Shown here: positions 50,599 to 52,224 of the stretch, piece by piece
Numbering within the stretch: position 1 is the stretch's first letter
Layout: each line of letters opens with the position of its first letter
Assembly: GCF_041886205.1 (NCBI RefSeq)
Contig: NZ_CP169029.1
Origin: Escherichia coli
GTDB lineage: Bacteria > Pseudomonadota > Gammaproteobacteria > Enterobacterales > Enterobacteriaceae
Strand: one strand, 5' to 3'
Length of the DNA: 64,000 nucleotides
Position numbers and translations under genes: made by a program
The notes under the pieces: generated by a model
Told to the model about the DNA's origin: nothing
The model's input: only the letters and a program-made list of their open reading frames with translations
Database searches by the model: none

Positions 50599-52224
50599 AT
50601 GAAAGCAATTCACAATCTGATTAGAAACATCTCTTCAAGCCATCAAGATAAGCATTCAGATAAAGTCAACAATCATCAATACCATGGCAAGGTTGATAAA
50701 AAACATCTTTCAAAGATAGTTGAAATTGATAAGCTGGATAAACATTCGCAAATAGATAACGATTTTGGCCTGCATATCATCTATTTCCTGCAACATGGCT
50801 GCTGGAAGGTAAATGAACATAGTCCTCAGATAGAAAAAATATGGTTTTACAATAGTGAGCCATCTATAGATATTCAAAAATATAATAGTTTCGCCGACAA
50901 TACTACTGACACGTTTATCTTTACAATTATACCAGACAATAACCATGTGATAAAATTATCGTCTCCCATTACCGTTACGACTGAGCGTAAGGACGGTTAT
51001 TATTTTATTAATTTCTCCGGAGATAAATCAGACATAATTTATAAATCAGACATAATTTATAAATCAGACATAATTTATAAAGTTAATGGGCTTTCTATCA
51101 TACCTGAAAATTTCTTTACTCTTCTTAGCGGTAATTTTAAAGCTGACTGGCGTTGGGATGTCTCTAAAGAGACGTTTCCTAAGGATAAGTTTGATAGCTA
51201 TGTTAATACTGTGTTTTCAAAAATAGACTTTTATAAACAGTGTGGTGTGATTAACCCACAAAATGCCAACACGGCTTATTTTGGCGATACAGATGGAAGA
51301 GTAGGCGCAGTACTTTATGCATTGCTCGTTTCAGGGCATATAGGCATCAGGGAAAAGGGTTGGAGTTTATCATGTGAATTATTAAAACACGAAGACATGG
51401 CTTCATCTGCATACAAACATAAAAATAATAAATTGCTCTACGATTTATTAAATACGAGAGACATGATATTGAATGAGTTGCATCAACATGTTTTTTTAAA
51501 GGACGATGCGATAACCCCTTGTATCCCCCTTGGGGATCATACAGGCGATAGATTTAGTACTATTTTTGGTGATAAATATATCCTTACTTTGCTAAATTCT
51601 ATGCGAAATATGGAGGGTTATAAAGATAGCCGTATTAATAAAAATGTCGTCGTTCTGGCTGGAAATCATGAAATCAATTTTAATGGTAACTATACTGCAC
51701 GACTAGAAAATTATAAACTCTCTGCCGGTGATACGTATAACTTAATTAAAACGCTCGATGTTTGTAATTATGACTCAGAAACTAAAGTTTTAACCAGTCA
51801 TCACGGAATAATAAGAAATGAAGAAAATGAATGTTATTGTCTCGGTGCTTTGCAGGTTCCATTTAATCAGATGAAAGACCCAATTGATCCTGAGGAATTA
51901 GCAAATATATTTAATAAAAAACATAAACAACACATGGATGATCGTCTTATCCATCTAATTAGAAGCAATGCTATAGCATCCACACCTGTATATGACAATT
52001 ATTTTAATAACACTACTGCTTTCAGACCAAAACCTGAAGATATCTTCAAATGTGGACAGACGCTCAAAAAAACTAAACAGAAATATGGCCATTATGGATT
52101 AGGGGTAGATCAGCATCAAAAAATTGATAATTATACCATGGGGCTAAATTCCTGGAAGATAGCTCCTAACGAACGTGGTGATAAAAAAGGTGTCCCAGGG
52201 CTTAGTTGTTTTCAACCACATTAA
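50599..52224 (+). CDS. yhiL: DUF4049-family protein YhiL, 541 aa, function unknown
   Basis: Paralog of the downstream ORF; start at MKAIHNLIRN; very AT-rich. Confidence 0.7.
   Translation: MKAIHNLIRNISSSHQDKHSDKVNNHQYHGKVDKKHLSKIVEIDKLDKHSQIDNDFGLHIIYFLQHGCWKVNEHSPQIEKIWFYNSEPSIDIQKYNSFADNTTDTFIFTIIPDNNHVIKLSSPITVTTERKDGYYFINFSGDKSDIIYKSDIIYKSDIIYKVNGLSIIPENFFTLLSGNFKADWRWDVSKETFPKDKFDSYVNTVFSKIDFYKQCGVINPQNANTAYFGDTDGRVGAVLYALLVSGHIGIREKGWSLSCELLKHEDMASSAYKHKNNKLLYDLLNTRDMILNELHQHVFLKDDAITPCIPLGDHTGDRFSTIFGDKYILTLLNSMRNMEGYKDSRINKNVVVLAGNHEINFNGNYTARLENYKLSAGDTYNLIKTLDVCNYDSETKVLTSHHGIIRNEENECYCLGALQVPFNQMKDPIDPEELANIFNKKHKQHMDDRLIHLIRSNAIASTPVYDNYFNNTTAFRPKPEDIFKCGQTLKKTKQKYGHYGLGVDQHQKIDNYTMGLNSWKIAPNERGDKKGVPGLSCFQPH
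51025..51078 (+). repeat. Perfect 3 x 18 bp in-frame tandem repeat inside yhiL
   Basis: aaatcagacataatttat x3, encoding KSDIIY three times. Confidence 0.9.

Follow-up and report, generated by a model that had tools for sequence, protein, structure and literature searches.

We analysed a stretch of 64,000 nucleotides of Escherichia coli DNA (contig NZ_CP169029.1 of assembly GCF_041886205.1), referred to here as the window and numbered from its first letter, and studied a perfect tandem repeat located inside the gene yhiL. The gene, its domains, the repeat and the neighbouring paralog yhiJ are arranged as follows (CDS, coding sequence; ORF, open reading frame).

50599..52224, plus strand: yhiL CDS, 541 amino acids, intact in the window, about 34% GC (ORF list; RefSeq CDS of genomes with the same haplotype).
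51023..51081, plus strand: tandem array of three perfect 18-bp units, ATAAATCAGACATAATTT, followed by a partial ATAAA; (KSDIIY)x3 is encoded by 51025-51078.
50716..51126, plus strand: Pfam domain DUF6860, YhiL residues ~40-176; the profile match is split by the repeat after position 112 of 125.
51259..52212, plus strand: Pfam domain DUF4049, YhiL residues 221-538, similar to the PPP/WipA-like metallophosphatase fold, with the motifs GDTDG, GDHTGDR and GNHE.
52486..54108, plus strand: yhiJ, the paralog, without the repeat; 35% identity to YhiL from the last repeat unit onward.

Tandem Repeats Finder ranked the array at 51023-51081 as the best of the window, with a period of 18, a score of 118, 3.3 copies, 100% matches and no indels, the runner-up array reaching a score of 58. 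Direct reading gave three identical copies of the unit and the partial ATAAA; 51025-51078 are the coordinates of this array when it is set to codon phase. Within the yhiL CDS the units keep the reading frame: positions 50998-51105 are translated as YYFINFSGD-KSDIIY-KSDIIY-KSDIIY-KVNGLSIIP, and (KSDIIY)x3 corresponds to residues 143-160 of YhiL. With up to 3 mismatches allowed, the 18-bp unit occurs 3 times in the window, against 0.08 times expected from shuffles, and no further copy was found in the window outside the array. An earlier sequence-only reading of this DNA had described a perfect three-copy 18-bp repeat encoding (KSDIIY)x3 inside yhiL, and both Tandem Repeats Finder and the translation returned the same array. 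It had also stated that the repeat is absent from yhiJ, and this agrees with BLASTP and with the unit search, which found a single non-repeated equivalent there; the BLASTP alignment of the two proteins starts with the last unit (YhiL 158 IIYKVNG / YhiJ 131 IVYLLNN).

The Pfam profiles indicate that YhiL is composed of an N-terminal DUF6860 and a C-terminal DUF4049, and the matches to both profiles are well above the gathering scores (530 bits for DUF4049, cut-off 25; 256 bits for DUF6860, cut-off 27). In the protein of the one-copy allele, positions 1-125 of the DUF6860 profile are matched end to end by residues 40-164. In the three-copy protein, positions 1-112 are matched by residues 40-151 and the remainder forms a second stretch. 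As the match is broken after position 112, the repeat lies within DUF6860, 13 profile positions short of its C-terminal end, rather than in a linker between the domains. The YhiL/DUF4049 family is small, with 52 matches, mostly fragments of yhiL, among 1.84 billion representative proteins searched with HMMER, and the exact YhiL of the window was not found in a collection of 15 billion proteins. Since homologues are so few, AlphaFold2 modelled the N-terminal part poorly: the mean predicted local distance difference test (pLDDT) score was 48.5 for the three-copy YhiL, with residues 1-198 below 50, and 61 for the one-copy YhiL, with residues 1-171 below 50. The three-copy model placed the repeat in a loop before a strand, and this placement was rejected as not trustworthy at such scores. 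The yhiL-yhiJ block (50000-54000) is an AT-rich island of 32-39% GC between flanks of 50-60% GC.

The copy number of the unit was surveyed in 5426 complete E. coli genomes by BLAST with junction-specific queries, consisting of 60 nt (one unit and its flanks), 41 nt (two units) and 77 nt (four units, with a stringent E-value). The locus was present in about 4174 of these genomes, and the repeat region of yhiL was altogether missing from about 1250. The proposal of the sequence-only reading that copy number and protein length vary between isolates was borne out, and the identical three-copy state in all genomes that it had named as contrary evidence was not what we found: most carriers have one copy (3861 genomes, or 92.5%, by full-length match to the 60-nt query), 308 have two (7.4%) and five have three (0.12%), the 77-nt query being matched over 59 nt only. 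The 313 genomes with at least two units detected by the 41-nt query, 19 of them perfectly and 294 with one or two mismatches, are exactly the remainder of 4174 after subtraction of the 3861. No array of four or more copies was found among the 5426 genomes. The three-copy state is thus the maximum seen and a rare extreme, and the three alleles together give a low diversity (Simpson index about 0.14).

The three-copy genomes are LHM10-1 (pig, China), XJ5.2 (bovine, China), CP52E (human, Thailand), 6EVA (human, Singapore) and wlxctx60 (bear, Japan), and a scan for three units in 241 million metagenome records added one contig with exactly three copies. The one-unit junction was not found in one-genome-per-species contigs, where the representatives apparently do not carry the sequence, which makes this search uninformative on other species. 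The commoner two-copy allele has a T>C change in the second unit and encodes KSDIIY-KSDITY; it was found in O104:H4, in 55989 and in a Shigella sonnei protein cluster of 2416 members. Two- and three-copy states mark particular allele lineages, one of the O104:H4/55989/S. sonnei type and another of the wlxctx60/XJ5.2/LHM10-1 type. Intact ORFs exist at each copy number, with 529 or 536 amino acids for one copy, 535 or 541 for two and 541 for three.

Comparison of close relatives revealed changes of whole units on the haplotype of the window. Identity with the window across 16 kb amounts to 100.0% for wlxctx60, 99.9% for XJ5.2 and 99.8% for VE-T9; the last of these differs from the window by 13 single-nucleotide polymorphisms (SNPs), one 1-nt indel and exactly one 18-bp unit, having two copies in an intact yhiL ORF of 535 amino acids. 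A search with the two-copy version of the window haplotype (383 nt) returned VE-T9 as the sole genome at 99% identity or more. In a 6.9-kb alignment, two derived SNPs are common to VE-T9 and the three-copy XJ5.2, and a derived CC is common to VE-T9, the three-copy window and wlxctx60. These derived SNPs shared with three-copy genomes indicate that VE-T9 is nested among them, so that loss of a unit, from three to two, is the parsimonious reading. A recent and slippage-prone copy number, as had been anticipated from the perfect identity of the units, is in line with this difference of one whole unit on the same 16-kb haplotype. The window yhiL also carries two private nonsynonymous SNPs, C at 51371 and T at 51619, positions that read T and A in all other three-copy genomes, in VE-T9, in the metagenome contig and in the outgroups.

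Similar changes were detected on the haplotype of the O104:H4 type. A3024, with one copy, is separated by 6 SNPs over 5030 nt from O104:H4, which has two, and both share the annotations of yhiL as 'frameshifted; internal stop' and of yhiJ as frameshifted. In RM9245 and SW07096 the only unit present bears the T>C change, which elsewhere distinguishes unit two of the two-copy allele, and their 365-nt haplotype does not differ from that of the O104:H4 type. As duplication of a T>C unit cannot yield the ATT-ACT array, a contraction from two units to one is the simplest reading for these two genomes. No three-copy derivative of this imperfect array was found among its 294 genomes. The data show that copy number changes in situ by whole units on two separate haplotypes.

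The structure of the one-copy alleles suggests how the array arose. All of them read GGAG-ATAAA-TCAGACATAATTT-ATAAA-GTT, in which a 13-nt core is flanked by a 5-bp direct microhomology (ATAAA) whose copies are 13 bp apart. This single unit, ATAAA-TCAGACATAATTT-ATAAA, is the commonest state and would be the ancestral one, and misalignment on the ATAAA microhomology would duplicate 18 bp to give two copies. Two perfect units may then ease slipped-strand mispairing, by which one lineage would have gained the third unit, and units would also be lost, as proposed for VE-T9 and for the O104:H4-type haplotype. Each step would add or remove one KSDIIY module near the C-terminal end of DUF6860, always with the frame kept because 18 bp are six codons. 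Hairpin-driven instability was considered as another cause and rejected, the DNA fold being weak (z = -1.65) and no significant single-strand hairpin being found. We infer from the array, the census and the changes on shared haplotypes that the repeat is probably a low-copy coding variable-number tandem repeat (VNTR), made and altered by replication slippage and most likely near-neutral in its effect on fitness.

Near-neutrality is suggested by the evolution of yhiL as a whole. Within E. coli, yhiL alleles differ at up to 149 of 1589 aligned positions (about 9% of nucleotides), the 5' 400 nt and the 3' 350 nt recombine independently of the middle, and the ratio of nonsynonymous to synonymous substitution rates (dN/dS) between intact alleles is 0.69-0.96. 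The gene is a frameshifted pseudogene with one unit in K-12 MG1655 and a pseudogene with two units in O104:H4 C227-11. Six sampled loci carry a yhiL pseudogene (K-12, O104:H4, TUM1887, RM9245, SW07096 and A3024), and pseudogenisation was independent in them. This pattern fits weak or fluctuating constraint on yhiL. Given a gene that is rich in AT, changes almost neutrally and has in many cases been inactivated, the insertion of 6 or 12 residues is most probably near-neutral, with a fitness effect that is nil or very small; yhiL tolerates both insertions inside DUF6860. The alignment contains a second in-frame difference of 18 nt, GTGAAGACCCCAGCAAAT (columns 1472-1489; window ~52070), which is present in K-12, O104:H4, S43 and EC1515 and absent from the window and TUM1887. 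It was considered as a second tandem repeat and rejected, being a plain indel within a mosaic segment of high divergence.

Some observations weigh against near-neutral slippage as the full account. Among complete genomes we found no one-copy genome on the window's own 5' haplotype, the nearest one-copy alleles being about 3% different over 401 nt, so that the path from one to two to three units in the window lineage is deduced and was not observed. The genome set is clonally biased, with many K-12 and O104:H4 assemblies, and the counts given above are not population frequencies or rates. Lastly, alleles with one, two and three copies are all retained as intact ORFs in spite of the divergence of about 9%. 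This may point to selection against nonsense mutations, perhaps also to diversifying selection, and the length change may therefore not be strictly neutral.

The same retention is the starting point of the alternative that best survives, in which YhiL is functional and under diversifying selection and its N-terminal domain is adjusted, for instance in the recognition of a partner or target, by how many KSDIIY modules it contains, so that selection would keep expansions. ORFs of 541 amino acids have remained intact with dN/dS of 0.7-0.96, the differences among three-copy alleles are all nonsynonymous (2-5, with 0 synonymous), the three length classes include the large two-copy cluster of S. sonnei, and the repeat is inside a Pfam domain. 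However, 92.5% of carriers keep one copy and 0.12% have three, pseudogenes are common irrespective of copy number, neither yhiL nor its family has a known function, and the models with pLDDT below 50 in the N-terminal domain give no structural support. We consider selected length variation improbable. A more specific form, in which YhiL is a WipA/WipB-like phosphatase under diversifying selection in E. coli and Shigella and the KSDIIY count is a selected 'length dial', is less probable still; if true, it would make the repeat a functional hot spot and not neutral slippage noise.

An effect at the DNA level, with the 18-bp periodicity creating an intragenic promoter or iterated protein-binding sites, is very unlikely. 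Two sigma-70-like matches on the plus strand, at 51029-51056 and 51047-51074, require at least two units, since each spans adjacent units (CAGACA-16 nt-CATAAT, 9/12). Such matches are weak, the region contains 10 of them where shuffles gave 6.3 +/- 2.4, a number in keeping with 32% GC, the second unit is missing from most genomes, and there is no conserved partner feature, so that the matches are probably meaningless in DNA so rich in AT. Less credible again is a phase-variable contingency locus that switches yhiL on and off: the perfect repeat and the differences in copy number between close relatives would suit it, but a unit of six codons cannot shift the frame, the reading frame is open at one, two and three copies, and copy number never exceeds three, so that on/off phase variation is effectively refuted by the unit length. 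An assembly or sequencing artefact, which the sequence-only reading had named as a possible objection, has a negligible probability and was rejected, because five complete genomes, assembled independently and of varied hosts and countries, and one metagenome contig all carry exactly three perfect copies, and no point in its support was found.

The neighbourhood of yhiL also differs among the genomes compared. A segment with copper-resistance genes of the pco type (pcoS/pcoE, sometimes with insertion sequence elements) takes the position of yhiN (window ~48850-49160) immediately upstream of yhiM in LHM10-1, CP52E, 6EVA, O104:H4 C227-11 and EC1515, and yhiN is found there in the window, XJ5.2, wlxctx60 and VE-T9.

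The C-terminal domain of YhiL invites comparison with the Legionella effectors WipA and WipB, which have a PPP-like phosphatase domain. The DUF4049 motifs of YhiL and YhiJ (GDTDG, GD(H/Q)TGDR and GNHE) can be set beside the PPP signatures GDxHG, GDxxDR and GNH[ED], from which they depart by Asp in place of His in GDTDG and by one extra residue in GDHTGDR, and DUF4049 shows similarity to the PPP, or calcineurin-like, metallophosphatase fold of the WipA type. The profile matches are below the curated Pfam thresholds, with 18.8 bits for Metallophos (cut-off 21.5) and 15.8 bits for WipA_Phos (cut-off 27), the latter on YhiJ only. YhiL differs from WipA and WipB in its first motif, GDTDG and not GDxHG, and in that no PDB chain is matched by YhiL by sequence or profile. 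The DUF4049 family looks like a putative WipA/WipB-type phosphatase, a by-product of more interest than the repeat itself; the comparison concerns the host protein, as the repeat sits in the other, N-terminal domain.

A literature search returned no paper linking yhiL to a tandem repeat, only a chance match for the unit sequence and its peptide, and no papers on DUF4049 or DUF6860, and the mentions of yhiJ concern a 20-kb deletion and not its function. We thus found no published description of the yhiL repeat, although VNTRs as a class are well known. The simple-sequence contingency loci of Haemophilus and Neisseria are built from repeats of 1-7 bp whose length is no multiple of three, or are promoter spacers, and they have many copies and high rates. 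They share with yhiL a reversible, repeat-mediated length change in a coding region. In contrast to them, the yhiL unit has six codons and at most three copies, and it shows neither the frame shift nor the altered promoter spacing by which such loci switch expression on and off.

The closer relatives are the coding VNTRs used in multiple-locus VNTR analysis (MLVA) of E. coli, for example the CVN loci of Lindstedt. Like them, the yhiL repeat consists of intragenic head-to-tail units of more than 10 bp and differs among isolates by whole units, a type of variation attributed to slipped-strand mispairing. With tandem units, polymorphic copy number and a whole-unit change on one haplotype, the yhiL locus is a VNTR by definition. 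Unlike the MLVA loci, it has three alleles and little typing power, and it lacks the high allelic diversity for which VNTRs are valued in typing; CVN002 is a different locus and far more variable, with alleles of up to 18 repeats. Little rides on the yhiL repeat, which brings no new mechanism and opens no long-standing question. With respect to tandem duplications seeded by microhomology, the founding event at yhiL is read from the structure of the junction and was not itself observed, and the likeness is that the duplicated segment is the core plus one ATAAA, exactly 18 bp. The locus is a clean documented case of an in-frame duplication seeded by microhomology and followed by gain and loss of units within clones.
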